This document shows positions 4,238 to 55,487 of a stretch of DNA of 64,000 nt, piece by piece. This DNA is from an uncultured Verrucomicrobiae bacterium. GTDB lineage: Bacteria > Verrucomicrobiota > Verrucomicrobiia > Palsa-1439. A program made the translations under genes and the position numbers. The DNA lies in the NCBI GenBank assembly GCA_963812605.1, contig CAWEWF010000004.1, positions 352,001-416,000 of the forward strand, in the 5' to 3' direction. The notes below the pieces were generated by a model. That model saw only the letters and a list, made by a program, of their open reading frames with translations. It made no database searches and was not told where the DNA came from. How positions within the stretch are numbered: position 1 is the first letter of the stretch; each line of letters starts with the position of its first letter.

Positions 4238-5692
4238 TTGACCCACTCTCCAGCGCAGGCCGTGCGAAAGTCGTTGGCAAAGGGGCGGTTTGTCATTAAA
4301 ACTGCAACCACTTTGTCGCTGCGAGGAACCATCCTGTGGTTGATCGGCGCGCTGGCGTGCGCGCTGGGCGCCTTCGCGGAGAATGAGATCGTCTCCAACG
4401 TGGTGTCGCTCAACCAGCGTCCGCGCTACACGTTGCCGCAGTGCATCGACCGCGCGCTGGAGGACAATTCCGACATCCTGGTGGCGAAGAAGCATCTCGA
4501 AGAGGCCGCGGGCGCGATCATTGAAGCGCGCGCGGGTTACCTGCCGGCGCTCACCACCTACGCCAATTTCGAATGGCTCGAAGCCAACTACGCGACGCTG
4601 AATGGATCGGTGAGCAATCGGTCGGACATCTGGAACGTCAACATCCGCCTGACCGAAACCGTTTATGCGGGCGGCGCGGTGCGCGCCGGGATGGACATCG
4701 CGCGGTTGCAACAGCACTCGCGCACGCTCGACTACGAGGGCACGGTGAATCAGGTCATCATGGACGTGCGCATCGCCTTCTATGACATTCTGCGCAATCA
4801 ATCCGATGCCGCCGTCCACGAACAGGCCGTGAGTTTTCTATCCGAACAGGCCAAAAACGAACGCTCGCGGATGGAAGTCGGGACGGGCCAGAAGCTCAAC
4901 GTCCTCCGCGCCGAGGTGAATCTGGCCCTGGAACAGTCGGCGCTCGTCGATGCCCGCAATCGCCTGCGCAATTCCTATTTGCGACTCAGCCAACTCTTGT
5001 CGATCCCCTATTCCATCGATCAGGACGAAATCCCCTTTGATATCGAGGGGACGCTGGCTTACGAGAAAACCGCGCTCGAACTGGACGATTGTCTTTCGCG
5101 CGCGCTCGCGCAACGCCCCGAACTCACCGCCCGGGAAAACGACATCAACGTCCAGAAGAAACAACTGATCGTCGATCGCAGCGCGGTGCTGCCGCACGTC
5201 AGCCTGTTTGCCGGTTACGATGTCGTCAGCGAACCTGACCGCACGCAGTCAGCGGACCATTACGACGGTTATCTGGCGGGTGTCTCGGTCAGTTGGCAGT
5301 TGTTCGACGGTTTCGCCGCGCGGGGCCGCATGAACGCCACCCGCGCCCGCGTCGAAGCCGCCGAGATTTCCCATGACGCGGTTTATCGCAACATCGAGAC
5401 CGATGTGTTGCTCGCTTATCGCGACCTGCAACGGTCCGAGGAAAACATCCAGACGCAAACGGCCAACGTGCAACTCGCCACCGATTCCCTGAAACTTGCC
5501 ACGGCGAACTTTGGCCTCGGGCTGACAAGCCAATTGGAACTCCTGCAGAGCCAGTTGGACCTGACGCGTGCGCAGGTAGCGGAATTGTCGGCGCGATACG
5601 AATACAACGCCGCGCTGGCGCGGTTGGAGCGCGCCATGGGCACCCACTTTCAAATCACCGACGCCCGTTCCACGGGTAAAGGCGGCCCATGA
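4238..5692 (+). CDS. TolC-family outer membrane efflux protein
   Basis: two OEP helical repeats, signal-like segment; true start probably downstream. Confidence 0.88.
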   Translation: MTHSPAQAVRKSLAKGRFVIKTATTLSLRGTILWLIGALACALGAFAENEIVSNVVSLNQRPRYTLPQCIDRALEDNSDILVAKKHLEEAAGAIIEARAGYLPALTTYANFEWLEANYATLNGSVSNRSDIWNVNIRLTETVYAGGAVRAGMDIARLQQHSRTLDYEGTVNQVIMDVRIAFYDILRNQSDAAVHEQAVSFLSEQAKNERSRMEVGTGQKLNVLRAEVNLALEQSALVDARNRLRNSYLRLSQLLSIPYSIDQDEIPFDIEGTLAYEKTALELDDCLSRALAQRPELTARENDINVQKKQLIVDRSAVLPHVSLFAGYDVVSEPDRTQSADHYDGYLAGVSVSWQLFDGFAARGRMNATRARVEAAEISHDAVYRNIETDVLLAYRDLQRSEENIQTQTANVQLATDSLKLATANFGLGLTSQLELLQSQLDLTRAQVAELSARYEYNAALARLERAMGTHFQITDARSTGKGGP

Positions 5693-11392: not shown

Positions 11393-12250
11393 TCAGGCTG
11401 AGGAATCACCTTCAGAGATTTGCCTGCCCGACTCGTCCTTGAATTTTCCATTTTCAAACTCGACCAAGCTGGAGATGAAACGGACATCGTCCTCTGAAAG
11501 TTCAAACCACTCGCCATGAACCCTTTTCTTGGTAAACCAGCCGTGGAGTATCTTCTCAGCTTTGTAGCTATCATCTGCGCCGATCTCGTGCATGACTAGA
11601 ACTGTGAATGGAAGCAGGGTATTGACACCTTTGGATCGCGTCTTAGGTTCTCCGCTTACACCGATTTTGTATATGCGTCGTTCTTTGTTTCCTAGCAAAT
11701 ACACAAAGCCATCATACTCCTTATTGGTCGCTCTATTAGGATGCTGCCCGCACCGTTCTTTACATGGCCAACAAGCCTTTTTGCCTTCTATGTCAATGCA
11801 AACAGATTTCCTACCTTCTTTACCCTCGCAACGCTTGCTTGCTTGCAATTCACACACTGCCCATGTGTTAACACGGTGTATGCCAGGGAGAAGCACCTCG
11901 ATAAGTTCCTCAACGTCGCTGTGAAACAACTCCAGCTTAATGGGAGGCTTTCGACCAAAATAAAGTTCGAAGGGGTCCCGTGGAGAGCTAAACTCCAGGT
12001 TGTCTAAACGGTGGTCCCGTAGCCGTAGCTGTATACGGATACGAATGCCATTCCAATCCACCCATTCATACTCCAAGGCGGAGCCTTGGAAATGGTCACC
12101 GAAAGGTATAGCGCCACGTTCCTTGCTGGTGTCGAGTAGTCCTGAGATGAAGCCGAAATGCCAGACTGCATCAAAGAGCCAGTCGATGACCTTCCTCTGG
12201 ACGAGTTCTCTCGCCTGCTGCGAATCGCCAGTGTCATCTGTGTGAGACAT
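11393..12250 (-). CDS. GIY-YIG (T5orf172/MUG113-like) domain protein
   Basis: GFVYL...YKIG.S..P..R...EKILH....KRVHGEWF. Confidence 0.8.
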   Translation of the reverse strand: MSHTDDTGDSQQARELVQRKVIDWLFDAVWHFGFISGLLDTSKERGAIPFGDHFQGSALEYEWVDWNGIRIRIQLRLRDHRLDNLEFSSPRDPFELYFGRKPPIKLELFHSDVEELIEVLLPGIHRVNTWAVCELQASKRCEGKEGRKSVCIDIEGKKACWPCKERCGQHPNRATNKEYDGFVYLLGNKERRIYKIGVSGEPKTRSKGVNTLLPFTVLVMHEIGADDSYKAEKILHGWFTKKRVHGEWFELSEDDVRFISSLVEFENGKFKDESGRQISEGDSSA

Positions 12251-40165: not shown

Positions 40166-41165
40166 CTACAGTCCCAGCCGTTGGATGAGAAAGAAAATTA
40201 CCGGCACGGTAAGCAAACTGAAGAGCGTACTGTAGAAAATCCCCTGCGCGCTGAGCGACACGTCGCCACCAAAACGTTCGGTGAACATGCTGCAAGAAAT
40301 CGCCACGGGCATCGTCGCGATGAGGTAGCCGACCATTCGCGGGATTTCCGGCACGATCACGCCGGTTCTGAGCACGGCCCAACCGACCGCTATCGTGAGT
40401 AACGGCCCAACGATCAACCGGGCGAGCAGCACGCCCCAAAGCGCCCGCGAAGGCCGATGCATATGGAGTTCGAGATCGCCAAGTTGCGCGCCGATTGCCA
40501 GCAACGACACTGGGATGGTCATGCTGCCCACCATGCCCAGCGCCTGCACCACGGCGCTCGCGGCCAGATGCGGCGGCGATCCCGAGAAAATCGTCGCCGC
40601 TTCCCAGTTATGTGAGGAAGGCACAAGCAACGCGACAACAATCCCCGCGGCGGTCGCGATCAGATCCGGGATTTTTCACGATATGGCTTGTCGCTTCACG
40701 CGCGGTCACGCCGCCACGCAGGAGCCAAACGCCAAACGACCAGAGCATGAGTTGCGCGCCGACATTATCGAGCAGGAGGGTCCGCACGCCCGCGTCGCCG
40801 TACATGGCCTCGACGATCGGCAGCGGCAGGAAGATCCAATTCGGTATCGCCGCGAGAAAGACGAAGGTGTTTTTCTGTTCGGCGCGACAGAAGAACGGCG
40901 CGATGAGCAAGCCCGCTCCGTAGGCGATGATGATCAATAGGCACATGAGCAACGGCGCAAACCAGCTCTCCCGCAAAGCCCCCGGCGTGACCGTACGCAG
41001 CATTTGCGTGAAGACCAGCGCAGGGAATGCAATATCCACAACAAACCGGCTCAGGATTTTTGTCGTTTCCGCGGGTAGGTAGCCGCGCCGGCGCACCAAC
41101 CAGCCGACAACAATCACCAGGAACATCGCGGCGATTTTCACCAGGACGATTTGCCAGTCAACCAT
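40166..41165 (-). CDS. AEC-family transporter, frameshift near 40660
   Basis: FPALVF, LPLP, KNP, MPVA, STLFSLLTVP. Confidence 0.85.
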
Positions 41166-41478: not shown

Positions 41479-42522
41479 TCATTCTGTTTCTGACACCAAG
41501 ATGCTCGACTTCCCATTCCCGTTGACCAACGCGCCCTCGTCAAAACGGTAGCGACTGCCAATCAGGTATTCTTCGACATTTTCACTCGCAAGCCATCGCC
41601 GCCCAAGGCGCTCCGCTACAGCGCCGCAGGTATTGGAGCCCGCAAAGGGGTCATATACGAGATCACCCTCGGTCGTGAGGAGTTTAATGAAGAATTCTGG
41701 AAGTGCGGCAGGAAATCGCGCTGGATGAATCTTAACTCCATGCTGCTTGCAACACTTCGTGTAATAATCGTTCGCCGAGTTGTTGCCTAGCCGAAGCATC
41801 GACTCAGCGTCTGAGTCGTCTATCACGTTTGGCGGGATCGACCCTCCAGACGAAATATCGGTGAACCCGGATTTGATGCTGTGTCCAGAAGGTCGGATGG
41901 TTTCAAGCACACCGCGTTTGTTCAAACGAATCATGTCAGCGCTGTATGGCCTAAGCACATTCCTGTTGTTGGCTTTCGGGTGCGGTGTTTTAGAAAACCA
42001 CCAAAGATATTCGACGGAGTCCTTGATCCGTACCCGCCTCACTGTCACCCACTCGGCTGGCATGGGCATTTTCGCTGGGTTATACCAAAAGGCTTCTTGC
42101 GCTAAATGGAAACCAACTTCCTCTACCAAAGCCACGAGCAGCTTAAAGTGATAGATGGACCGTGTAGGACTTCCCTGATTGTAGCTTCCGCCGATGTTTA
42201 GAACAAAACTACCATCGTCAGTGAGCACTCGCTTAAATTCTTTGGCGAAGCGTACAAACCACTCAACGTACTTGTGCTTCTCAACATTCCCGTATGCCTT
42301 TTTGAAATGCAGTGCATAGGGGGGGGACGTAAAGATCAGGTTGGCGCTATGGTCCGGCATGTCGGCGAGCATACACTCGGAATCACATAGATAGGCCGCA
42401 CCGAAATCCGTTTCGTGGAACGGCTCCAGGCTTTTCACAAGTGCCGAGGGATGGACGCCCTTGCCGAAATGCAAATCCCTCTGCCTCTTCACGGTCGTTT
42501 TCACACTGGCTTCTGTTGACAA
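41479..42522 (-). CDS. beta-class amino DNA methyltransferase (probably m4C)
   Basis: [20 protein letters not shown]. Confidence 0.92.
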
Positions 42523-43662: not shown

Positions 43663-43815
43663 GGCCTCTCTGATGGCACGCTAAAGTCCCTGCTGTGCCG
43701 CGCAAGCAGAACATCGGTTCCCCCTGAAGGTTTCCCCTAATTCGCTTTCGGAAAACGAACCTGCCGCGTGTCAGTCGCGTCAGGGACTTCACTGGCGCTG
43801 TGACCAACTGGCCGG
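43663..43815 (-). ncRNA. candidate rod-like structured RNA (6S-like?)
   Basis: TGAAGTCCCTG/CAGGGACTTTA plus further stems; upstream TTCACG-17-TAAAAA. Confidence 0.4.
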
Positions 43816-43949
43816 GGCTTTTTTTACCGGATTCGGCTTGTGCCGTGAACGGACGCGCAGGAGCGCGCCCCTCCGACTGCGCGGCAAGCGGAGTGCTTGC
43901 CCCGATCTCAAAATCGGGGCAGGCCCTGCAAATTGTGAATGTTAAACAG

Positions 43950-44590
43950 GCGACCCGCCTTCGCCAAGGCTACGGCGGGACAGGGACGCCTGTTCTACGC
44001 GTCAAATGAAGTTTGATGGGCGCCCGGAGATCATCAATCCAGTATCGGTAATCGATAATTTTTCTCGACAGCGGGTGGTGGGATGGGTATAGTCGGCGCA
44101 GTTCTTTGACATCCGCCTTCGCTAAAGCTTCGGCGTGACACGTCCGCCGTCGCACTTGGGGCTTCCGCCTTCGCGAGACCGCGGCGAGAGGCCACGGGCG
44201 GGACGCCCGCGCCACTACCGAGAGAAGGGGGGGGCCTCAAAAACATGTGGTTGCCGCAGACGACAGCGGTGTCTCGTCGGACTCGGCTCCGTCCGAGTCG
44301 GCTACAGCGGCGGGAGATTAACAGGCGGGACGCCTGTTCAACTCGAAGGGGACCACGGGCGGGACGCCCGCGCCACTACCGAGAGAAGGGGGGCCTGTTC
44401 AACTCGAAGGGGACCACGGGCGGGACGCCCGCGCCACTAGCGGACGAGGGGACTCGAAAACATGCGTTTCTGCGAAACGAACCCCCAAGTTAACTACCCA
44501 TTTTGCAAGTACTTAGGCGGGCGGCTCTCGGAAAGTGGCCGGGTTCGTCGCTCGCGGTTGAAAACCGCTCCTACGGGAAAACGAAGCGCT
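43950..44590. repeat. cluster of REP-like short palindromes
   Basis: ccacgggcgggacgcccgcgccacta x3, ccgccttcgcNaaNgctNcggcg x2, others ending in CTAC. Confidence 0.8.
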
Positions 44591-45825: not shown

Positions 45826-46750
45826 ATGCAGCCGACTCTTCTGGTCATGGCCGCGGGCATGGGCAGCCGTTATGGCGGGCTGAAGCAAATCGACGCCGTC
45901 GGCCCCAACGGCGAAGCGATCATCGACTACTCAATTTACGACGCCTTGCGGGCGGGGTTCGAGCGGCTGGTGTTTGTCATCCGCCGCGACATCGAAGCGG
46001 CCTTTCGGGAGGCGATTGGCGGAAAGTTCGAGAAGCGGATCGCGGTCGATTACGTCTTCCAGGAACTCGACAACCTTCCGCCTGGATTTTCCGTCCCGCC
46101 CGGTCGCACCAAACCGTGGGGCACGACGCAGGCGATCCTCATGGCCAAGGAAGCCATACATGAGCCGTTCGCCGCGATCAATGCCGATGATTTTTATGGA
46201 CACGAGTCGTTTCAGGTCATGGCGGATTTTCTGCGGGCGAGCGGCGCTGACTACGCGATGATCGGCTACACCTTGCGAAACACCTTGTCCCAACACGGCA
46301 GCGTGTCGCGCGCGGTTTGCGAATGCGATCCGGCTGGTTTTCTGCGGGCCGTCGTGGAGTTGCCCAAAGTCGAGAAGCGGGATCGCGGCTGCGCAAGCGG
46401 AAGACCGCGCGCTCAGCGGCGACGAATTGGTGTCGATGAATTTCTGGGGTTTTACGCCCGCGTTGTTCCCGCAATTGCGGGAACAGTTCAATGCCTTTCT
46501 GCGACGCAGCGGGCAGGAATTGAAAAGCGAATCCTACATTCCCACAACGGTGAACGAACTGGTGGCGTCGGGCGCGGCCCGCGTAAAAGTCCTGCGCACC
46601 CCCGCTTCGTGGTTCGGCATCACGTACAAGGAAGACAAACCGCAGGTTGTCGCCAGCATTCTCCGGCTCGTGGAAGCCGGCGAATATCCGTCGAAGACTT
46701 TGGACGTGAAGTCGCGGCGCAAATCGATCGAGCGACCTAGGAAGGTGTGA
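45826..46750 (+). CDS. NTP-transferase family protein, frameshift near 46400
   Basis: MAAGMGSRYGGLKQ, INADDFYG, VSMNFWGF. Confidence 0.88.
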
Positions 46751-48683
46751 GGTCGGCTTTCAGGGCGGGCTTCAATTCGTTCACACGCGCGGCGGCTTGC
46801 TCCCAGTCGGCGGTCGCGCGGGCGAGGTCTTCCGTGACGGTGCTCAACTCGCGATTGACGGCGACGGCGCGGCCGGGTTTGTCGTAGGTCTCGGGCTTTT
46901 CCAGTTCGGCGGCCAATTCCTTCTGCTTCTGTTCCAGGCGGGCGATTTCTTTTTCCAGAGTACCCACGAGTTGTTCCTGTTCGCGACGCTCGCGCGACCG
47001 GACATTACGCGCCTCGGCTTCTGACCGCTTTTGTTCCTTGCCCTTGGGACGCGAAGAATTCACCGGCGGCGCGACCGGGACCGCTGACGCCGCGATCGCC
47101 GCGGCGATGGCCGCGGATTTTTCGAGATAGTATTGGTAATCGCCGTGGTAATGCATCAGCTCGCCGTTGTTCACGTGCAAGACGTACTTGGCGAGCTTGC
47201 GGATGAAATACACGTCATGGCTGATGAAAATCAGTGTGCCTTCGTAGGATTCCAGCGCGCCGATCAGCGCATCGATGCTCGCCATGTCGAGGTGCGTGGT
47301 GGGCTCGTCCATCAAGAGCAGGTTCGGCGGATCGAGCAGAAGTTTGACCAGCGCCAGACGGCTTTTCTCGCCGCCGCTGAGCACGCCGACCGATTTGAAG
47401 ACATCGTCGCCGCGAAATAGAAACGAGCCGAGGACGGTGCGGACGGTTTGCTCGGAGATGCGTTGGGGGGTGTCCAGCGCTTCCTCGACGACCGTGCGTT
47501 CGGCGTTCAGCATCTCGACGCGATACTGGGCGTAGTAACCGACCTTTACGTTCAAGCCCAACTCGCGCGTGCCGCCCTGGACGGGGAGCACGCCCGCCAG
47601 CAGTTTGAGCAGCGTGGATTTGCCCGCGCCGTTCGGGCCGACCAGCACGATGCGCTGGCCGCGCTCGGCCTCGAAGTTCATGCCGCGATAAACGACCGTG
47701 CTGCCATAGGCGTGGTTGATGTTCTTCAGCGTGATCACTTTCAACCCGCTGCGCTGCGGCTGCGGAAAACGGAATTTGATCTTGCGCGATTCGTTCACGG
47801 GCGCTTCGATCTTGTCCATGCGCTCGATCTGCTTGAGTTTGGCCTGCGCCTGCGACGCCTTGCTGGCCTTCGCGCGAAAACGGTCGGCGAACTCCTGCAA
47901 GCGCTGGATGTCGCGCTGCTGGTTCTTGTAAGCCGCCAGCAATTGTTCCGATTGCGCCTCGCGTTGCACGAGATATTCGTCGTAGTTGCCGCGATAGCGG
48001 AGCAACTGGCTCTGGCGAATCTCGACGATGCTGCCGACCAGCTGATTCAGGAATTCGCGGTCGTGCGAGATCAGCAACACGCCGCCCGGATAGGTTTTCA
48101 GGTACTCTTGAAACCACTGCAACGCTTCGAGGTCGAGATGGTTGGTTGGCTCGTCGAGCAGGAGCAGGTCGGGCTGTTGCACGAGCAACCGCGCGAGATG
48201 CGCGCGCATGACCCAGCCGCCGCTCATCGCTTTCAGTTGCCGATCGAAATCGCGCTCGCGGAACGCCAGCCCGCGCAGGATCGTCTTGGCCTGGGGTTCG
48301 AGCTGATAACCGCCGAGTTCGTCGAACCGCGCCTGCACTTCGTGGAAATCGTGCGACTCGGTGTCGTGACCCGCTTCGAACAACTTCAGCCGCCGCTGCA
48401 ATTCGGCGATCTCGGGCGTGATGGCCGTCGCCAACTCCAGCACCGTCTCCTCCCCCACGGGCGCGGTCTCCTGCGGCAAATGGCCCATCGTCCCATTGCG
48501 TTCGATGGTCACCTCGCCCTCGTCCGGCGAGTCGTAGCCGAGGACGAGCGAGAACAGCGTGGACTTGCCCGCGCCGTTCGGCCCGACCAGCCCGATGCGG
48601 TCGCCGCGATTGACCTGCAGCGACGCGTCCTCGAAGAGTACGTGCGCCCCAAAGGCCTTGGTCATTCCCGAAATCGTCATCAT
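46737..48683 (-). CDS. ABC-F ATPase (YheS/Uup-like)
   Basis: two NBDs, linker, C-terminal coiled coil. Confidence 0.93.
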   Translation of the reverse strand: MMTISGMTKAFGAHVLFEDASLQVNRGDRIGLVGPNGAGKSTLFSLVLGYDSPDEGEVTIERNGTMGHLPQETAPVGEETVLELATAITPEIAELQRRLKLFEAGHDTESHDFHEVQARFDELGGYQLEPQAKTILRGLAFRERDFDRQLKAMSGGWVMRAHLARLLVQQPDLLLLDEPTNHLDLEALQWFQEYLKTYPGGVLLISHDREFLNQLVGSIVEIRQSQLLRYRGNYDEYLVQREAQSEQLLAAYKNQQRDIQRLQEFADRFRAKASKASQAQAKLKQIERMDKIEAPVNESRKIKFRFPQPQRSGLKVITLKNINHAYGSTVVYRGMNFEAERGQRIVLVGPNGAGKSTLLKLLAGVLPVQGGTRELGLNVKVGYYAQYRVEMLNAERTVVEEALDTPQRISEQTVRTVLGSFLFRGDDVFKSVGVLSGGEKSRLALVKLLLDPPNLLLMDEPTTHLDMASIDALIGALESYEGTLIFISHDVYFIRKLAKYVLHVNNGELMHYHGDYQYYLEKSAAIAAAIAASAVPVAPPVNSSRPKGKEQKRSEAEARNVRSRERREQEQLVGTLEKEIARLEQKQKELAAELEKPETYDKPGRAVAVNRELSTVTEDLARATADWEQAAARVNELKPALKADLTPS

Positions 48684-48777
48684 ATCGAACCGCGAAGCCT
48701 ACTACCGAAAGCGGAGGTGAACAAGGTGGAATTCACCACGAAGAGCACGAAGAAGACACGAAGAACACGGAAGCGCT

Positions 48778-49272
48778 TTAACTTCCACAATCAGCGCACG
48801 ACCCCAGATTTAAGTCATTCCTGATCCAATCGTGAAGCTCACAACAGATTGTATCAGTGTTGTCGAGATCAACACTTTTATAAATATGACCAACTAGGTC
48901 AGTTGGCATGTGTTCAATAGAACGATCTTTCAGTAGCGCACAACGTCGCCCCGTGATGAGCATGCTACCAACCTCAATTGTGAGGTTGTAATTTAGTCCT
49001 TCCTTTTGACGATCTTCGAAGAAGGCGACTCCATATTGGCTAGCCCACATATGAGCCGCAGTGTTTGCCCAGAGTGTATCGTCAATTAACCGGTCCGACG
49101 CCAGGTGAAATTCAAGACCATGCATTGCGCACACTTTGCGGGCGGCTGCTAGAGCCGGTCCTACCGGATCATCAGCGCGTCCTGATTCACTCGGATCTGG
49201 AAAACGCGTCATCCCAAATACATTTCTTTCAAATGGATGCGCCGCTAAGAATCGCCCAAGACTAGCCACCAA
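48778..49272 (-). CDS. TIR-like/nucleoside deoxyribosyltransferase-like protein
   Basis: NVFGMTRF, NYNLTIEVG, LLKD...MPTDL.G; start uncertain. Confidence 0.65.
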   Translation of the reverse strand: MVASLGRFLAAHPFERNVFGMTRFPDPSESGRADDPVGPALAAARKVCAMHGLEFHLASDRLIDDTLWANTAAHMWASQYGVAFFEDRQKEGLNYNLTIEVGSMLITGRRCALLKDRSIEHMPTDLVGHIYKSVDLDNTDTICCELHDWIRNDLNLGSCADCGS

Positions 49273-49347
49273 TTGAGGTGGCGTGAATGTTGGTGGAACG
49301 ATGGTATGAGCAATCTCTCCTAAGGCGTGCTGACTTGCACAAATACT

Positions 49348-49863
49348 TCATTCTGCTTGTTTGTCATTATCTACGGGCTTGTTTTTCGTTCCTTTATTGA
49401 CTTGATAGGTTTTTTTGAAGAACAGCTCGCCATGTACGGTGGGTCGGAAGCCGTTGCCAGAACGGCGGAATAGACTCTTACCTTCCCGTTGAGCGTTTTT
49501 ATAGGTCATATCGACACGCTCAGGGACTGTAATGCCCACTTGATCCGCTATGTCTCTGATCTCGTCAGCAGTAAACTCTTCAGACCCATATAGGCTGTAG
49601 TGGAACCCTGCCACAGCCAACGCATTATCAGAGGGCTTGCCTTGTTTCAGTTTCGAGAAGAAGCCATCAAGGTTAACAGTTTCTGTCTTCTGTTCAATCG
49701 AGTCGGCATCCCGGAGTTCGGGTTCTTCAGCCGCTTGCCTTTTGCCGAACGGTACAATGCCTTCAAGAAGTTTCTCAAAAGCGATTCGTCGCAGACTTTC
49801 GTCTTTAATTACGCCCACTTGTTCTTCTAGGCTCTTCAACTTCTCGGTAAGTTCGTCGTCCAT
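49348..49863 (-). CDS. helical hairpin + putative winged-helix protein
   Basis: LRRIAFEKLL; EFTADEI, P.R, F.PT..G; RBS GGAG before ATG 49863. Confidence 0.7.
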   Translation of the reverse strand: MDDELTEKLKSLEEQVGVIKDESLRRIAFEKLLEGIVPFGKRQAAEEPELRDADSIEQKTETVNLDGFFSKLKQGKPSDNALAVAGFHYSLYGSEEFTADEIRDIADQVGITVPERVDMTYKNAQREGKSLFRRSGNGFRPTVHGELFFKKTYQVNKGTKNKPVDNDKQAE

Positions 49864-49907
49864 TATTTTCTCCAATTAATCCGTATTGTTGTGCGTTGCC
49901 ATTTCTA

Positions 49908-50391
49908 CTACTCCGTATCATTTGTGGTCAGCCAGCCTTCGACCTCCTCCAGCGCACTACCTGTGAGACGATAGTGCTGCACTCCACCGATTTTTTCGGC
50001 TTTCATCAGTCTTCCTGTCCTCTCCAAACCAGCCACTACATCGCTTGGGTTCTTAGGTGATTTTTCACGGCTGACTCAAAGGAGTCTCTTAAGATCCCCG
50101 CTAGAAAAGCTTTCCTTCCCTGCTTGCGTTTCCGCCCAGTACCCAAGGACGATCGCTTTGTCCGTCAGCTTGACTCTTCGACTCTTGCGAATCAGACTCT
50201 TGGGGCGCAAGGTCTCGCTTGGGCGATGTGACTACGTCAGTGCGAACTGCAACAGGAGCGACGTTCTGCGATGTTTCGCGGTAGAGAAGGAATTTAAACG
50301 CTTCGGGCTGTACTGGGCCGGGTAAACTCGCAGTAAATTCACCCAGGGCCTTAAGAATTTCACCGAACTCTTCAATTGACTTTATCTCCAT
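49908..50391 (-). CDS. similar hairpin + winged-helix protein, interrupted by a frameshift and a stop
   Basis: AFKFLL; SFSSGDL, PKNPSD, YRLTGS; AGGAG RBS; breaks near 50195 and 50077. Confidence 0.6.
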
Positions 50392-50498
50392 ATCTCCTCT
50401 TTTCTTGCCCCCATAAAGAAGGGCTCTGGTTTCTGTTTTTTTCCACACCTGTACTAATCATATATAGGAATTCACTTAATGCAAGAATAATTGTGATG

Positions 50499-51345
50499 GC
50501 ACCGAATTGTAGTCTTCGGCTCCGTCGCTGGTTCACACCGACTGCTTGGCGTGCCGGGTCAATGAATGATAAGCGCCGGGTGTTTGCTGCCGCTGCCGCG
50601 CGAATACATGCACCGCCAGGATTGCCTCTTGACATAGCAATTGATGAATGTTTGGCTAGCGGCCCAAAGTCGGAGCTCCATATGATTGCATGGATCTAAA
50701 CGAGGCACCGCCGAACGCAAACCGCTTCTTCCATGCAAGGAGTGGGTTTTTACGGGTCCGTGGTGGTTGTGTAGGCTTGGATAAGCCGATAATAAATCTA
50801 CATGAAAACTAATATATATATCTTACTATTTCTAATATATTCTGTTACAATTACTTACATAATTATATCTACATATCATAAATAGTATTTCACTATAGGA
50901 AAACTGTATACATGCGGCGCCGAATTGAAGTCTTCGGCTCCGTCGCTGGTTCACACCGATTGCTTGGCGTTCCGGACTCGTAGAGATCAGGACAATCGGC
51001 GCGATAGCCTCATTAACCTGTATTTTCGGCAGATTTAAGGATGTGGCCATCGGATTTTTCAAATCCAAGGCGATCACAAATTAGCATACGGTGGCATGAG
51101 AAACATACGGCAACTGCCTAAACACAAGTCGAGTCCGCGATTTAGAGGCCCAATGGATGATAGATGCGGTTGAAAGCACCTGTTCGTGTTTTATTTTTTT
51201 GATGCGTAAATAACACCGGTATAACGCATTCTGTTATATGATTAGAGCATAAGTCGAATTGCATGGCATGCAAGTAGTGAAGTCGCGGTGCCGAATTGTA
51301 GTCTTCGGTTCCGTCGTTGGTTCACACCGACTGCTTGGCATGCCG
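50499..51345. repeat. three 58-bp direct repeats with long unique spacers
   Basis: 50499-50556, 50917-50974, 51288-51345; 4-7 pairwise mismatches. Confidence 0.95.
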
Positions 51346-51669
51346 ATGCGCACTGAGATACAAATTCAGCAGTTTTTCGGGTGGCTTGAGATCAAAGACG
51401 TGCTCGTCTCCTGACGTATCTTCCCACAAAATCAAGGTAGTATTTTAATTAGTGGTGGCGCCAGGAATCCTTTCGCAGATTTATCCCTCGGTGCAAGCGC
51501 GGCAGACTTTTGGGCAGGAGCGGCAGATTCCTCCCGAGAATGGTGAACTTGAGCCCATAAAGGCAAAGGTAGATTGTCGTGTTGATATCGTAAATCGATA
51601 CTTTTTGCTGGACACGGTTTGTGGAGGTCGATATAGTTGGCGGGTGATGTATGAGCAGAAGACCAACAG

Positions 51670-52170
51670 CGGCAAGCGGAGCGCTTGCCCTACAATTCGG
51701 ATCGGCGGGAGGGTGGAATGGAGGGGATTTGGAGACCTACGGTCGAGAAAAGTGCGCGGTCGGGAGACCGGCGCACAACAATACCACTCGAACGCAGAAA
51801 GCTGCGGGCGGGACGCCCACGCCACTAGCAGGGAGATCCAAGGGGGGCCTATATATGTTTCTGCGAAACGAACCCACCGTTTTGGGAGGGCGTTTTTGGT
51901 GTAACCTTCAAGGAACACGGGGGTTGTGACGGAAAGTCCTGGAACATTCGGTGGGTTCGTTTTGGAAAACGAACCCAATTTCGGGGGGTTGGTTGCCGCG
52001 GAAACGGTGCTGCGTCGAAAAACGAACCTAAAATAGGTGCTGTAAATGAAGTCGCCGGCTGGTTTGTGTGTTCTTCGTGCATGCGGGCTAGACCCTTCGC
52101 TTCGCTCAAGGGTGACAACCTTCTGGACGCAGTGGTCCAAAATGAAGAACGACGGCAACCAAGATGGTTG
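51670..52170. repeat. REP-like cluster and AAACGAACCC repeats
   Basis: short palindromes ending CTAC/CAAC; aaacgaacccacc...ggtgggttcgttt inverted pair. Confidence 0.7.
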
Positions 52171-52442
52171 CCCTACAATTCGGAAACGATATTTGCGGTG
52201 CGGAGCAATATCTTGAATCGGGTGGGGCGTGAGATAGGCTGCGCGCTTAGTACTATGCGTTTCATCACGGGAAGGAAATCCGGGGAGCCCGTGCCGTACG
52301 GGCCGCTTTTCGTCGCTTTTCGTGAAATAATCGTTTTACATTTCCGAGATTTCTGTTCTAAGCTAGTGGTTGCTTGGAGAAAGGTTGCCTCGAGCACCTT
52401 CGAGGCCCATCTCGCGTCCGCGAGGCAGGAGACTGGCGAACC

Positions 52443-53849
52443 ATGAACATGACAGACTTACTGGCGAAAACAAAAACTGAATTGCTGAAGATCGCTCACC
52501 GACACGGCCTGCGGGGGGTGTCCACGCTCAAGAAGGAGGAGTTGGCCGACAGGATTCACGAGTCCCAGCAGCGGCCCAAAGGGAGCACCACCAAACAGCC
52601 GCTGGGTCCCAGTGTTGTCGCCCGCAGAATCGCTGACGCTGTCAAACGGCGCGCGGTTCGCAAATACGCCGGGGAACCCGTCGCTCACGCCGCCCCTGTC
52701 AAAGCCCGAACACAGGCTGTCCGGCCGGGACATCGCGCCAAAGTTGCCGCGAAATCCAGGCCCATGGAAATCGAGGCGGAAGAGACCGGCCGCCCATCCG
52801 AAGAACTTTCCGCCCACAAATTCGATGTCACGCCGGCAGCGGCGGCGCCCCGGCAGGTTTTTCAAGAGGAGCACCTGGGCGAATTGCCCGATGCCTACGG
52901 CACCGGCCATCTCTTTCTCACCGCCCGCGATCCGCATTGGCTTTACGTTTATTGGGATCTCAATTGGCAGCAGATGGCCGATTTTCGCGGCCAGGCCGCG
53001 GATGGCCGTTTGTTGCTGCGCGTTTTCGAGAAGAACCACGCGGAACCGTTTCAGGTACTGACGCTCGGCCACGATTCACGCAACTGGTACATCCCCGTCA
53101 ACAAGGCCGCCACCACGTACACTGCCGAGCTGGGTTTCTGGCGGCACGACGGCCATTTCCACGTAATCAGCCGTTCGCGCGAAGCCACGACGCCGCCCGA
53201 TGCGATCTCGCCCGATACCACGGCCCGGTTCGCCACCATCCCGATCGATATTTCGTTCCAGGAACTTTTTGCGATCATTCGCGGCCACATGCGCGACGGC
53301 GAGGCTTTGGCCGAAGCGTTGCATCGCCTGCAACTCGCGGGGTTCCGCTTCCCCTTCAAACTCGGGCTCGAACTCGGCCCGTGGACCACGGACCAGGCTG
53401 CCGAGTTGGAGCGCATTCTCGGCGGCGATCTGTTCCGTCGCATCCAGATGGGGTCGTTCGAAATCACGGAGTGGCTGCGCCGCCGTTTGCAGGAAGAACT
53501 CAGTTCGGGGATGTCCAGCGCGTTCAGTCCGTCGGGTTCGAGTTGGTCGGGCGCGCCGCAGAAGGGGTTCTGGTTCGCCGTGAACGCCGAGTTGATCATT
53601 TACGGCGCAACGGAACCGACGGCCAAGGTCACCATTGACGGCAAGCCCGTGAAATTGCGCAGTGACGGGACCTTCTCGTTCCAATATGCGTTCCCGGATG
53701 GACAGTACAAACTGCCGGTCGTCGCCATCTCGGCAGCCGGTGACGACCAACGCGAAGCGCAACTGACCTTTGAACGCCAAAGCCGCACGAAAGGCGGGGT
53801 GGGCAAGGTCAAACAACCGTCGCACCTCAAAGCGCCTGCCGCCGCGTAA
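52443..53849 (+). CDS. Rho_N + DUF4912 protein
   Basis: KTELLKIA...STLKKEEL; LPDAYG, RDPHWLYVYW. Confidence 0.85.
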   Translation: MNMTDLLAKTKTELLKIAHRHGLRGVSTLKKEELADRIHESQQRPKGSTTKQPLGPSVVARRIADAVKRRAVRKYAGEPVAHAAPVKARTQAVRPGHRAKVAAKSRPMEIEAEETGRPSEELSAHKFDVTPAAAAPRQVFQEEHLGELPDAYGTGHLFLTARDPHWLYVYWDLNWQQMADFRGQAADGRLLLRVFEKNHAEPFQVLTLGHDSRNWYIPVNKAATTYTAELGFWRHDGHFHVISRSREATTPPDAISPDTTARFATIPIDISFQELFAIIRGHMRDGEALAEALHRLQLAGFRFPFKLGLELGPWTTDQAAELERILGGDLFRRIQMGSFEITEWLRRRLQEELSSGMSSAFSPSGSSWSGAPQKGFWFAVNAELIIYGATEPTAKVTIDGKPVKLRSDGTFSFQYAFPDGQYKLPVVAISAAGDDQREAQLTFERQSRTKGGVGKVKQPSHLKAPAAA

Positions 53850-53900: not shown

Positions 53901-55487
53901 TTGCCAGTGCCACAAGGTTACGTAGCGCTCATCCTGCACGCGCATCTGCCGTTTGTGCGCCATCCTGAGTACGAGGACTTTCTCGAGGAAGACTGGCTGT
54001 ACGAGGCCATCACCGAGACCTACATCCCGCTCATCAAGATGATGGAAGGCCTCGTCCGCGACAACGTGGATTTTCGCCTGACGATGACGCTCACGCCGCC
54101 GCTCTGCTCGATGCTCCTCGATCCGCTGCTGCAGGAGCGCTACATCCGCCACATCACGCGGCTCATCGAACTCACCGAAAAGGAAATCGAACGCACCAAA
54201 TGGGACCGGGCCTTCAATGATCTCGCCTGGTTCTACCACCACCGTTTTCAAGAGGCCCGCGCCACGTTCTGCGACAGCTACGGGCGCAACCTCGTCGGCG
54301 CGTTCCGCAAGTTTCAGGAAATGGGCAAGCTCGAGATCATCACCTGCGGCGCGACCCACGGCTTTCTGCCGTTGATGACGGAGCATCCTGAATCCATTCG
54401 CGCCCAGATCATGATCGCGCGCGACCATTATCGCCAATGTTTCGGCTGCGACCCGCGCGGCATCTGGTTGCCGGAATGCGCCTACGTGCCCGGCATCGAC
54501 AAATTTCTCCAGGAGGCCGAGATCCGCTGGTTCATCATGGACTCGCATGGCCTCATGTTCGGCCATCCACGCCCGCGCTACGGGATTTACGCGCCGGTAT
54601 TCACGCCGACCGGCGTGGCCGCGTTCGGGCGCGACGTCGAATCTTCGAAGCAGGTCTGGAGTTCCGAGGAAGGGTATCCCGGCGACGGCGATTACCGCGA
54701 TTTCTACCGCGACGTCGGTTTCGACCTCGAATACGACTACATCAAGCCGTACATCCACCCCGACGGTATCCGCTGTTTCACCGGCGTGAAGTATTTCCGC
54801 ATCACGGGCAAGACGTCGAACAAGGAGCCCTACAACCGCCACAATGCGATGGAGAAAGCCGCGTCGCACGCCGGCAACTTCATGTTCAACCGCGAAAAAC
54901 AGGTCGAGCATCTCCTCGGCATCATGAAACGCCCGCCGCTGATCATCTCGCCGTACGACGCCGAATTGTACGGCCATTGGTGGTTCGAAGGCCCCGACTT
55001 CATCAACTTTTTCACGCGCAAGGTCGCATTCGACCAGAACGTCTTCAAGCTTACCACGCCGACCGAGTATCTGCGCAGTTTCCCGACCCAACAGATCACG
55101 CAGCCGGGCGCCTCGAGCTGGGGCAACAAGGGTTACTGGGAGGTCTGGCTGGAAGGCTCCAATGCGTGGATTTATCCGCACCTGCACGTTGCCGCGCAAC
55201 GCATGACCGAACTCGCGCGCAACTTCAAGCATGGCGACCATCTCACGCAGCGCGGCCTCAAACAGGCGGCCCGCGAACTCCTTCTCGCGCAATCCAGCGA
55301 CTGGGCATTCATCATGAAAACCGGGACAATGGTGCCCTACGCCGTGAAGCGGACGAAGGACCACATCCTGCGTTTCACGCGTCTCTACGAGCAGATTAAA
55401 GAACATCGCATCGATGAGCCCTGGCTTTCCTCAATTGAATGGCGGGACAACATCTTTCCTGACATCAATTATCATTACTACGCATAA
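53901..55487 (+). CDS. GH57 branching enzyme-like (DUF1957)
   Basis: HAHLP, WLPECAY, DAELYGHWW, QSSDW. Confidence 0.92.
   Translation: MPVPQGYVALILHAHLPFVRHPEYEDFLEEDWLYEAITETYIPLIKMMEGLVRDNVDFRLTMTLTPPLCSMLLDPLLQERYIRHITRLIELTEKEIERTKWDRAFNDLAWFYHHRFQEARATFCDSYGRNLVGAFRKFQEMGKLEIITCGATHGFLPLMTEHPESIRAQIMIARDHYRQCFGCDPRGIWLPECAYVPGIDKFLQEAEIRWFIMDSHGLMFGHPRPRYGIYAPVFTPTGVAAFGRDVESSKQVWSSEEGYPGDGDYRDFYRDVGFDLEYDYIKPYIHPDGIRCFTGVKYFRITGKTSNKEPYNRHNAMEKAASHAGNFMFNREKQVEHLLGIMKRPPLIISPYDAELYGHWWFEGPDFINFFTRKVAFDQNVFKLTTPTEYLRSFPTQQITQPGASSWGNKGYWEVWLEGSNAWIYPHLHVAAQRMTELARNFKHGDHLTQRGLKQAARELLLAQSSDWAFIMKTGTMVPYAVKRTKDHILRFTRLYEQIKEHRIDEPWLSSIEWRDNIFPDINYHYYA

Follow-up and report, generated by a model that had tools for sequence, protein, structure and literature searches.

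A 58-nt repeat array upstream of a degraded winged-helix and TIR-like operon in a Verrucomicrobiae genome: a possible relic of mobile-element accretion

On contig CAWEWF010000004.1 of an uncultured Verrucomicrobiae bacterium (positions 352,001 to 416,000), three copies of a 58-nt sequence are arranged in a row upstream of a small operon, and on the minus strand each copy is followed by a pair of promoter-like hexamers. The whole stretch analysed, referred to as the window, has a length of 64,000 nt and a GC content of 0.587. The locus raises the question of what such an arrangement represents. A first-pass annotation made from the sequence alone had offered two answers, either a set of separately transcribed RNAs of about 300 nt, each with a variable 5' part and a constant structured 3' end, or recombination or cassette sites with built-in promoters, and had regarded the genes behind the array as a putative defence operon. 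From the analyses described here, the array is most economically viewed as what remains of mobile-element traffic at the margin of an island in decay.

The repeat array and the hexamers beside it

By direct reading of the region, the copies R1 (50499 to 50556), R2 (50917 to 50974) and R3 (51288 to 51345) are direct repeats on the plus strand with start-to-start distances of 418 and 371 nt. All three lie within 850 nt, in one orientation and with roughly regular spacing. R1, which precedes the first gene of the operon by 108 nt, was scored with an E-value of 2.6e-22 by nhmmer and with 92 bits by a covariance model. When a 49-nt core pattern was searched on both strands of the 64 kb with up to three mismatches, R1 to R3 were the only matches, and the same search in 100 shuffled sequences yielded 0.00 matches on average. 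The array of three 58-bp repeats reported in the first-pass annotation is thus real, locally unique, and far beyond chance. Pairwise identity among the copies ranges from 91 to 95%. A dyad, CCGAA-N8-TTCGG, is contained in each copy and found nowhere else in the window (0.15 occurrences expected), R2 carrying a T to A change inside its 8-nt centre. The same bases double as hairpin 1 of the predicted fold, and the dyad is therefore not specific to attachment sites.

The GC content of the 58-mers is 0.57 to 0.62, compared to 0.42 in spacer 1 (50557 to 50916, 360 nt) and 0.44 in spacer 2 (50975 to 51287, 313 nt). The two spacers are unrelated to each other and non-coding, and open reading frames (ORFs) within or across them matched no Pfam family, which agrees with the earlier description of AT-rich spacers devoid of a convincing ORF. 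Spacer 1 contains a terminator-like hairpin on the plus strand at 50722-50745, spacer 2 a promoter-like site on the same strand at 51170-51197. That the spacers are decayed genes was considered and rejected, since neither a Pfam family nor tblastx similarity to 581 kb of related loci was detected. No frame is open through all three copies, so that a coding function of the repeat is unsupported, and a self-comparison of the region revealed the repeats only. The true repeated unit comprises about 105 nt: the conserved 58-mer, 14 variable nucleotides, and then a moderately conserved promoter-like stretch. On the operon side, weaker similarity extends about 45 nt past the 58-mer and fades; on the far side, it stops abruptly. 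Read by sequence, single units show neither terminal inverted repeats nor target duplications.

The hexamer pairs P1 (50457 to 50484, TTGCAT-16-TATGAT), P2 (50875 to 50902, TTTCCT-16-TATGAT) and P3 (51246 to 51273, TTGCAT-16-TATGCT), all on the minus strand, agree with the sigma-70 consensus in 8, 8, and 7 of the 12 positions, respectively. As sequence, they are present exactly as the annotation had described them, with 16-nt spacers and a constant distance of 42 nt between the far edge of the -10 hexamer and the start of the repeat. The further statement that each repeat is coupled to its own promoter held for the shared register and failed for the consensus match. P1 to P3 were not listed by an automated promoter scan of 48600-52600, which reported just two sites, both on the plus strand (51609-51637 and 51170-51197). 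At the loose level that P1 to P3 do reach, 39 such sites were counted on both strands of 50392-51700 versus 35 +/- 7 in composition-preserving block shuffles. By consensus match alone, P1 to P3 are not above background, and their common register is the only argument for them. In the 57-nt operon-side flanks aligned on the repeat, pairwise identities amounted to 30 of 36 in the hexamers and 55 of 135 elsewhere, a contrast that is post hoc, as the hexamers had been picked by eye. P1 is the sole promoter candidate between R1 and the start of gene 1 (ATG at 50391, preceded by a ribosome site of the GAGGAG type), and on the plus strand no conserved promoter was seen upstream of the repeats. Judged from their sequence, P1 to P3 are plausible as promoters but unproven.

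For a structured RNA, little was obtained. Compared with shuffled sequences, single copies gave fold z-scores of -1.2, -1.2 and -1.7 on the plus strand and of -1.4, -1.5 and -3.5 on the minus strand; the single-copy folds are not clearly better than shuffles. RNAalifold predicted 21 pairs for the plus strand, one of them covarying with both sides changed and three broken, and 17 pairs with none covarying for the minus strand, but a covariation test resting on three near-identical sequences has no statistical power. The compensatory pairing of the repeat ends noted earlier is broken in copy 1, where A is opposite C, and a structured repeat was statistically unsupported. The Rfam search recommended as a check detected no family, either at the gathering score in the whole window or at E-values up to 10 in 49800-52600 (Rfam 15), and on the minus strand the repeat is not followed by a T-run. 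Thus, RNAs of about 300 nt with a constant structured 3' end are supported neither by Rfam nor by folding, covariation or a minus-strand T-run.

The repeat was also searched for in other sequences. Blastn with 50400-51420 produced no match in 72,556 plasmids and a single AT-rich match of 46 nt (E 7e-3), judged to be due to chance, in 50,697 phage records. This comparison, likewise recommended earlier, revealed no recognisable source, and the spacers are not recognisable as phage or plasmid fragments in the collections searched. An exact scan with the 23-nt left block of the repeat (21 specified bases) in one genome each of 185,579 species gave no match; close genomes may simply be missing from this set, given that even the nearest relative at the protein level shares only about 71% identity. 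In 54 loci with homologues of the operon (581 kb), nothing credible was found with the 58-mer by nhmmer (best E 0.37) or by the covariance model, the best match of which, 21 bits in locus L016, is far from the operon. Within the window, no fourth copy or remnant was detected beyond the operon by nhmmer, by the covariance model, or by alignment, the score of which was no better than that of shuffles. A 10-mer match at 54961 inside a GH57 gene was attributed to chance. The heptamer CGAATYG was tried as a shared operator and occurs 39 times in the window, which makes it uninformative.

A decaying operon and the loci of its relatives

The array is part of a low-GC island (48690 to 51640, edges approximate) with a GC content of about 0.40 to 0.52 in DNA of about 0.6. 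The island is flanked by genes for an ABC-F ATPase (46737-48683, minus strand) and a DUF4912/Rho_N protein (plus strand, from about 52444). It contains three genes, all on the minus strand. Gene 1 (49908 to 50391) is broken: an N-terminal ORF (50391-50101) is followed, in another frame (50204-49938) and with an in-frame stop, by a winged-helix-like C-terminal part, which resembles the second protein of locus L050 (E 0.007). Calls of frameshifted pseudogenes in the window need caution, because a split gene elsewhere may be an assembly error. There, at 40166-41165 on the minus strand, the membrane-transport family Mem_trans is split between a pair of overlapping ORFs, one matching each half, which indicates a frameshifted gene or an assembly indel. 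Gene 2 (49348 to 49875) is intact and specifies 175 amino acids with N-terminal helices and a winged-helix-like C-terminal domain. In its structure model, residues 80-155 (pLDDT about 90) show a helix-helix-helix-hairpin topology. A fold search gave no significant match for gene 2, its best E-value being 0.27, with LysR and MarR DNA-binding domains among the weak matches; on the basis of the model, a winged helix appears plausible. Homologues of gene 2 adjoin the enzyme gene in L001, L002, L003, L005, and L007.

Gene 3 (48778 to 49272, 164 amino acids) encodes a domain resembling TIR domains and nucleoside deoxyribosyltransferases. Its AlphaFold model (pLDDT 84, pTM 0.80) is similar to nucleoside 2'-deoxyribosyltransferases, the CMP N-glycosidase MilB, and TIR domains (TM about 0.5-0.57, E 3e-4 to 5e-3), and leads from a protein atlas agree with such a fold. 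The family is large: of 957 candidates, 908 proteins reached E <= 1e-3, with identities of 59 to 76% for the 120 listed. No Pfam, NCBIfam or PADLOC model matched gene 3, and a sequence search of solved structures with the profile of the enzyme family gave no match. Full-length members have about 285 amino acids including an N-terminal winged-helix-like part, which tblastn located in 48 of the 54 loci. In the window, this part of about 115 amino acids is missing except for its last 16 residues or so; gene 3 thus appears, by sequence, to be shortened or to be a short form. An invariant C-terminal CxxC was also noticed in the family, as was a distant relative of the enzyme domain in L055 (NZ_OW967268.1, 1648-2586; about 30% identity over 67% of the query, E 4e-11). 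Relatives of this type are located on non-mobilizable Citrobacter plasmids of 3.6 kb beside a helix-turn-helix gene and were present in 10 plasmid records and no phage record.

Overall, the operon represents, in degraded form, an unnamed but widespread mobile module composed of winged-helix proteins and a TIR/deoxyribosyltransferase-like enzyme. The earlier description as a wHTH-wHTH-TIR-like operon stands at the fold level only as far as TIR is concerned, and it applies to an operon no longer complete. A role in defence found no backing: PADLOC 2.0 gave no match for the window proteins or for eight full-length relatives from L001, L050, and L004, and Pfam and NCBIfam were equally silent, even for full-length relatives. 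Hints to defence come from neighbours only, a HerA-like ATPase in L051 (PADLOC) and an OLD-like nuclease in L050 (Pfam), and the function remains unproven.

To place the array, the layout of related loci is informative. The 54 loci, obtained in a scan with the family alignment, belong to Actinomycetota, Verrucomicrobiota, Chloroflexota, Acidobacteriota, and others. In 12 of them, direct repeats of 28 to 212 nt flank the enzyme gene, and in six of these 12 the repeats overlap a tRNA gene; the same applies to L004 by way of a third repeat copy. In L022, L047, and L053, repeats derived from tRNAs are located at a greater distance. Integration scars are clearly stacked in L041 (154-2117): upstream of the homologous operon, four copies of the 3' end of a presumably guaA-like gene, so called after the peptide at its C-terminus, are separated by spacers of roughly 900, 480, and 220 nt, and the fourth copy is partial. 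The repeat of L026 is a 212-nt segment of a gene which we take to be cpaF-like, and that of L019 corresponds to the 3' end of an integrase gene. Three repeat copies are present in L004, with an integrase beside the tRNA, and in L042, with an integrase fragment inside the inter-repeat spacer of 1.2 kb. The repeat next to the operon ends 94 to 464 nt before the first gene in L041, L042, L050, L004, L009, L016, L030, and L019, compared to 108 nt in the window. Inter-repeat units of about 2 kb in L004 (4754-6709) and L019 (4495-6567) contain the two-gene operon only, without an integrase of their own, and are in this respect comparable to satellite-like cassettes or to cis-mobilizable elements. 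Verrucomicrobial and Acidobacterial relatives again have the operon as a low-GC islet in high-GC DNA.

The pattern of the window is seen again in L050 (3896-4289) and its orthologue L032 (3872-4264). Two 77-nt direct repeats, 317 nt apart, are located upstream of the operon; their cores are identical at 76 and 74 of 77 positions within the respective genome, and their flanks are only partly similar, as in the window. By eye, four differences are common to both copies of one species. Since copies within a genome are more alike than orthologous copies, these repeats show concerted evolution. An interpretation of the 55-mer of L041 and the 77-mer of L050 as 3' halves of tRNAs was supported neither by ARAGORN nor by Rfam and was dropped. 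No significant motif is shared among the upstream repeats of the window, L041, L050, L051, and L001, and across the related loci repeats near the module are found downstream as often as upstream.

Other arrangements were observed as well. As a rule, a small winged-helix-like gene, or a pair of them, precedes the enzyme gene on small islands that adjoin tRNA genes. In L001, the closest complete relative, a perfect 31-nt inverted repeat (4335-4365/4524-4554) surrounds an AT-rich, promoter-like segment of 158 nt directly before the first gene, a layout that may be compared to an invertible promoter or a miniature inverted-repeat transposable element (MITE). Two units with long hairpins (4262-4414 and 4558-4689) occupy the same position in L051. 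In the Verrucomicrobial loci L007 (4512-6863) and L040 (372-2781), arrays of a 31- to 68-nt repeat begin directly where the enzyme gene ends and reappear about 2 kb further downstream, and hairpin repeats of 60 to 120 nt are found in Verrucomicrobial relatives.

At the other side of the array, the island ends with a low-GC stretch (51346 to 51664) between R3 and the first of two inverted partial copies. An 11-mer from the operon-side end of the repeat recurs exactly, in inverted orientation, at 51690-51700 and 52173-52183, each time directly 3' of a GC hairpin. The two sites, on the plus strand, are designated D2a (51665 to 51707), in which 18 nt are 83% complementary to 51284-51301, and D2b (52148 to 52188), the hairpin of which differs from that of D2a by two compensatory pairs. 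The D2a hairpin alone is present again at 43881-43902. For nhmmer the two sites were not significant (E 1.2 and 3.9). With up to one mismatch, the 11-mer is found seven times in the window, in both orientations, against 0.92 expected. It contains TACAAT, a -10-like hexamer, which is directed towards the operon in R1 to R3 and in the opposite direction at the inverted sites. Three colinear modules are common to 51650-51880, on the right of the island, and the intergenic region 43880-44485, and 51650-51880 is for this reason regarded as host-type, repeat-rich DNA.

These modules, a GC hairpin, a G-rich box of 23-25 nt, and a 19-mer, form a dispersed intergenic element of the genome; the box is present three times (44195, 44356, 44417), and the part at 44324-44429 is tandemly duplicated. 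The promoter-like site at 51609-51637, TGGACA-17-TATAGT on the plus strand, matches the consensus at 10 of 12 positions, and a terminator-like hairpin follows at 52287-52303. Between them, about 660 nt before the DUF4912 gene are poor in ORFs, show a strong excess of G over C, and have no Rfam match; this plus-strand stretch (51609-52310) may be a long leader or a non-coding RNA. It also contains a 21-nt inverted repeat (51859-51879/51949-51969; 86% complementary, 69 nt apart) built on AAACGAACCC and a 26-nt palindrome (51952-51977) on the same motif, which is present three times in the stretch and again at 43750 and 44470. Elsewhere in the window, a gene with a T5orf172/MUG113 domain (11393-12250) and one for a stand-alone N6/N4 DNA methylase (41479-42522) are possibly mobile or related to defence.

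Possible origins of the array

By analogy with the related loci, repeat and promoter may constitute the end module of a small mobile island, and the array a relic of tandem accretion. This explanation is favoured tentatively, as one that may well turn out to be wrong, and at this strength the array is not filed as a member of the class of attachment-site repeats. The unit of about 105 nt would be the end module of the AT-rich island carrying the operon for winged-helix proteins and the TIR/deoxyribosyltransferase-like enzyme. Its GC-rich 58-mer would be the attachment or junction sequence, with CCGAA-N8-TTCGG as a dyad similar to a recombinase core, and the promoter just inside would drive the cargo. 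Attachment cores consist of two inverted half-sites around a centre of 6-8 bp. The three copies would be junctions originating from related elements that stacked at one chromosomal site by site-specific recombination; two of these elements would have shrunk to 313-360 nt of non-coding AT-rich DNA, while the third would retain the decaying operon. Today, an obvious job would be left for P1 only, and P2 and P3 would at most give rise to read-through transcripts. We infer that the array originated by recombination and that the 58-mer is, or was, an attachment site.

Several observations are in favour of tandem accretion. Relatives of the operon are found inside integration repeats, at a similar distance between repeat and operon, and triple repeats with short decayed spacers occur in L004 and L042. 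The repeat pairs of L050 and L032 show the pattern of the window, and the GC content of the 58-mers is host-like in AT-rich DNA, as with tRNA-derived attachment repeats in islands. The boundary of similarity is sharp away from the operon and fades toward it, and the dyad is unique to the copies. The decay of the island, with a broken gene 1 and a shortened gene 3, would fit a loss of recombination genes. Of the two original proposals, recombination or cassette sites with built-in promoters come closer to the comparative data and are in agreement with the dyad, but the partners expected of such sites were not detected. Pfam revealed no integrase, transposase, other recombinase, reverse transcriptase or Cas protein among 68 window ORFs, and tblastn with three integrases from relatives gave a best E-value of 0.42. 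No target gene is recognisable in the repeat, though one may have escaped recognition: ARAGORN predicted no tRNA or tmRNA (default, 85%) and noise only at 70%, and neither an Rfam family nor a consistent ORF covers the repeat. A far-side copy is missing as well, so the operon segment itself is unflanked, and the repeats bound only two short spacers. In a tblastx comparison of 48600-52500 with the 54 loci, nothing convincing was seen right of 50250. The copies are not 100% identical, and R2 deviates inside the dyad centre, a part in which identity is expected of recombining sites. Further points weigh against accretion: the left block of the repeat has no exact match in the species genomes, which would be unusual for a piece of a conserved host gene, although close genomes may be missing from that set; the peak of conservation on the hexamers would also suit selection for function; and the inverted 11-mers at 51690 and 52173 are unaccounted for, no model explaining them.

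Selection for function is the core of a rival explanation, which we regard as rather unlikely. According to it, the array is an old local duplication of the region upstream of the operon kept by selection, in which the 58-mer binds the winged-helix proteins of the island at about -50 to -107 relative to each of three tandem promoters feeding the operon. The operon family does encode two or three winged-helix-like proteins, and conservation is highest in the 58-mer and in both hexamers, the remaining sequence having diverged. The direct repeats of L050/L032 and L041, 295-317 nt apart and not tRNA-derived according to ARAGORN and Rfam, are likewise placed just upstream of the operon, those of L050/L032 evolve in concert, and long inverted repeats enclose AT-rich promoter regions in L001 and L051. 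But the repeats of different lineages share no detectable sequence, and the 58-mer was not found in the 54 loci by nhmmer or the covariance model even where the gene 2 homologue is 41-49% identical as a whole or 57-65% in its C-terminal part. Moreover, the operon to be regulated is broken, the repeats of the module are not confined to its upstream side, and an asymmetric site of 58 nt would be unusual as a winged-helix operator. The repeat could instead belong to a lineage-specific dispersed family of the REP or MITE type that bears a promoter, is clustered here, and includes D2a and D2b. That the genome carries dispersed intergenic repeats, including the recurring D2a hairpin, is in line with this, as are the excess of 11-mers in both orientations and the hairpin repeats of Verrucomicrobial relatives; on the minus strand, D2a and D2b show GTAG followed by a hairpin, the layout of REP sequences. 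A dispersed family is nevertheless judged to be unlikely, since three full copies are packed within 850 nt and none is present in the other 63 kb, the copies have the same orientation and roughly regular spacing without terminal inverted repeats or target duplications, no exact match was obtained in the species genomes, and the D2 sites were insignificant to nhmmer.

If the units were genes for separately transcribed small RNAs, transcripts would either start at P3 and P2 on the minus strand and end in the next repeat, or begin with the repeat on the plus strand and be terminated 170-240 nt further on, at sites with a hairpin and a T-run. The hexamers in register would provide promoters for the first version. 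For the second, the terminator-like site at 50722-50745 and, by eye, weaker ones near 51180-51205 and 51582-51606 are available, and the 11-mer could pair with its two complementary sites in the possible plus-strand transcript from 51609-51637 to 52287-52303. Weighed against these points are the missing Rfam match, plus-strand folding no better than that of shuffles, a single covarying pair on the plus strand and none on the minus strand among just three sequences, the absence of a minus-strand T-run 3' of the repeat and of a conserved plus-strand promoter before it. In addition, what is conserved, the 58-mer, precedes the putative promoters, and what would be transcribed, the spacers, is unrelated in sequence. 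Small RNA genes are therefore a decidedly unlikely explanation. An integron-type cassette array with the 58-mers as attC sites would account for their size, their uniform orientation, short cassettes without ORFs, and imperfect ends that can pair. Sites of this kind are defined by an inverse core RYYYAAC and a core GTTRRRY at the two ends. Neither motif is found at the ends of the 58-mer on either strand, the pairing of the ends is weak and broken in copy 1, and no integron integrase or any tyrosine recombinase is encoded in the 64 kb, so that the attC reading is largely refuted and appears exceedingly improbable. A CRISPR array was discarded in view of spacers of 313 and 360 nt and of the lack of a Cas family among the 68 ORFs. 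The first-pass annotation was thus borne out in its statement that the layout corresponds neither to CRISPR nor to canonical attC. Finally, 58-mer and promoter could together be the junction site of an undescribed platform on which a recombinase acting in trans stacks short cassettes with a promoter at a chromosomal site, some encoding the winged-helix/TIR-like module and others a non-coding RNA of about 300 nt, following an integron-like logic without IntI and attC. The repeat pairs of 55 to 77 nt in L050/L032 and L041 would then be independent instances and the inverted 11-mers secondary sites, but we consider this proposal very improbable.

Implications and comparison with known systems

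If the accretion reading is true, the array is a fossil record of the travel and decay of a very widespread unnamed mobile module. Each arriving element would have brought its own promoter at its very end, which is useful for defining island boundaries but not surprising. If the repeats are functional instead, a binding platform or RNA would offer the first handle on the control of an uncharacterised module of enzyme and winged-helix proteins. The unnamed operon family and its small integrase-less islands by tRNA genes appear to be a better subject than one degraded locus.

Among known systems, tandem paralogous small RNA genes with a promoter each, for example LhrC and Qrr, resemble the array in that promoter-bearing units are repeated every few hundred nucleotides. 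Their conservation, however, concerns the transcribed part; in the window, it concerns the 58-mer ahead of the putative promoters, and the sequences after them are unrelated. REP/BIME sequences and promoter-bearing MITEs such as the Correia elements of Neisseria are short, GC-rich, structured intergenic repeats that can supply a promoter. The GTAG-plus-hairpin layout of the D2 sites and a repeat able to bring a promoter to neighbouring genes are reminiscent of them, but there are only three local copies in the 64-kb window and single units lack terminal inverted repeats. Integrons are characterised by structured sites of about 60 nt that separate short cassettes in one orientation, some cassettes having their own promoter. 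Unlike integrons, the array lacks IntI, attI and conserved core sites, and the two ends of the 58-mer are poorly symmetrical.

Repeated integration at one site is known from the tycheposons of Prochlorococcus. As described in excerpts of the preprint 10.1101/2020.12.28.424599, such events push older elements inward, and remnants, among them broken integrases and additional partial tRNAs, are distributed over the island. The repeats of tycheposons, as portrayed in these excerpts, consist of partial tRNAs, and the elements themselves encode a tyrosine recombinase, whereas the 58-mer of the window is not tRNA-like. Tandem accretion and integrase-less cis-mobilizable elements (CIMEs) that keep their attachment sites are described in excerpts of PMC5704250. 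From these the window differs by the absence of an integrase, a recognisable target gene and a far-side repeat, by segments of only 313-360 nt, and by a repeat tied to promoter-like sequence. With accreted elements and CIMEs as they are presented there, it shares direct repeats in one orientation that separate foreign, decaying segments at one site, and relatives of the operon are found in such structures, including the integrase-less unit of about 2 kb between tRNA-derived repeats in L004.

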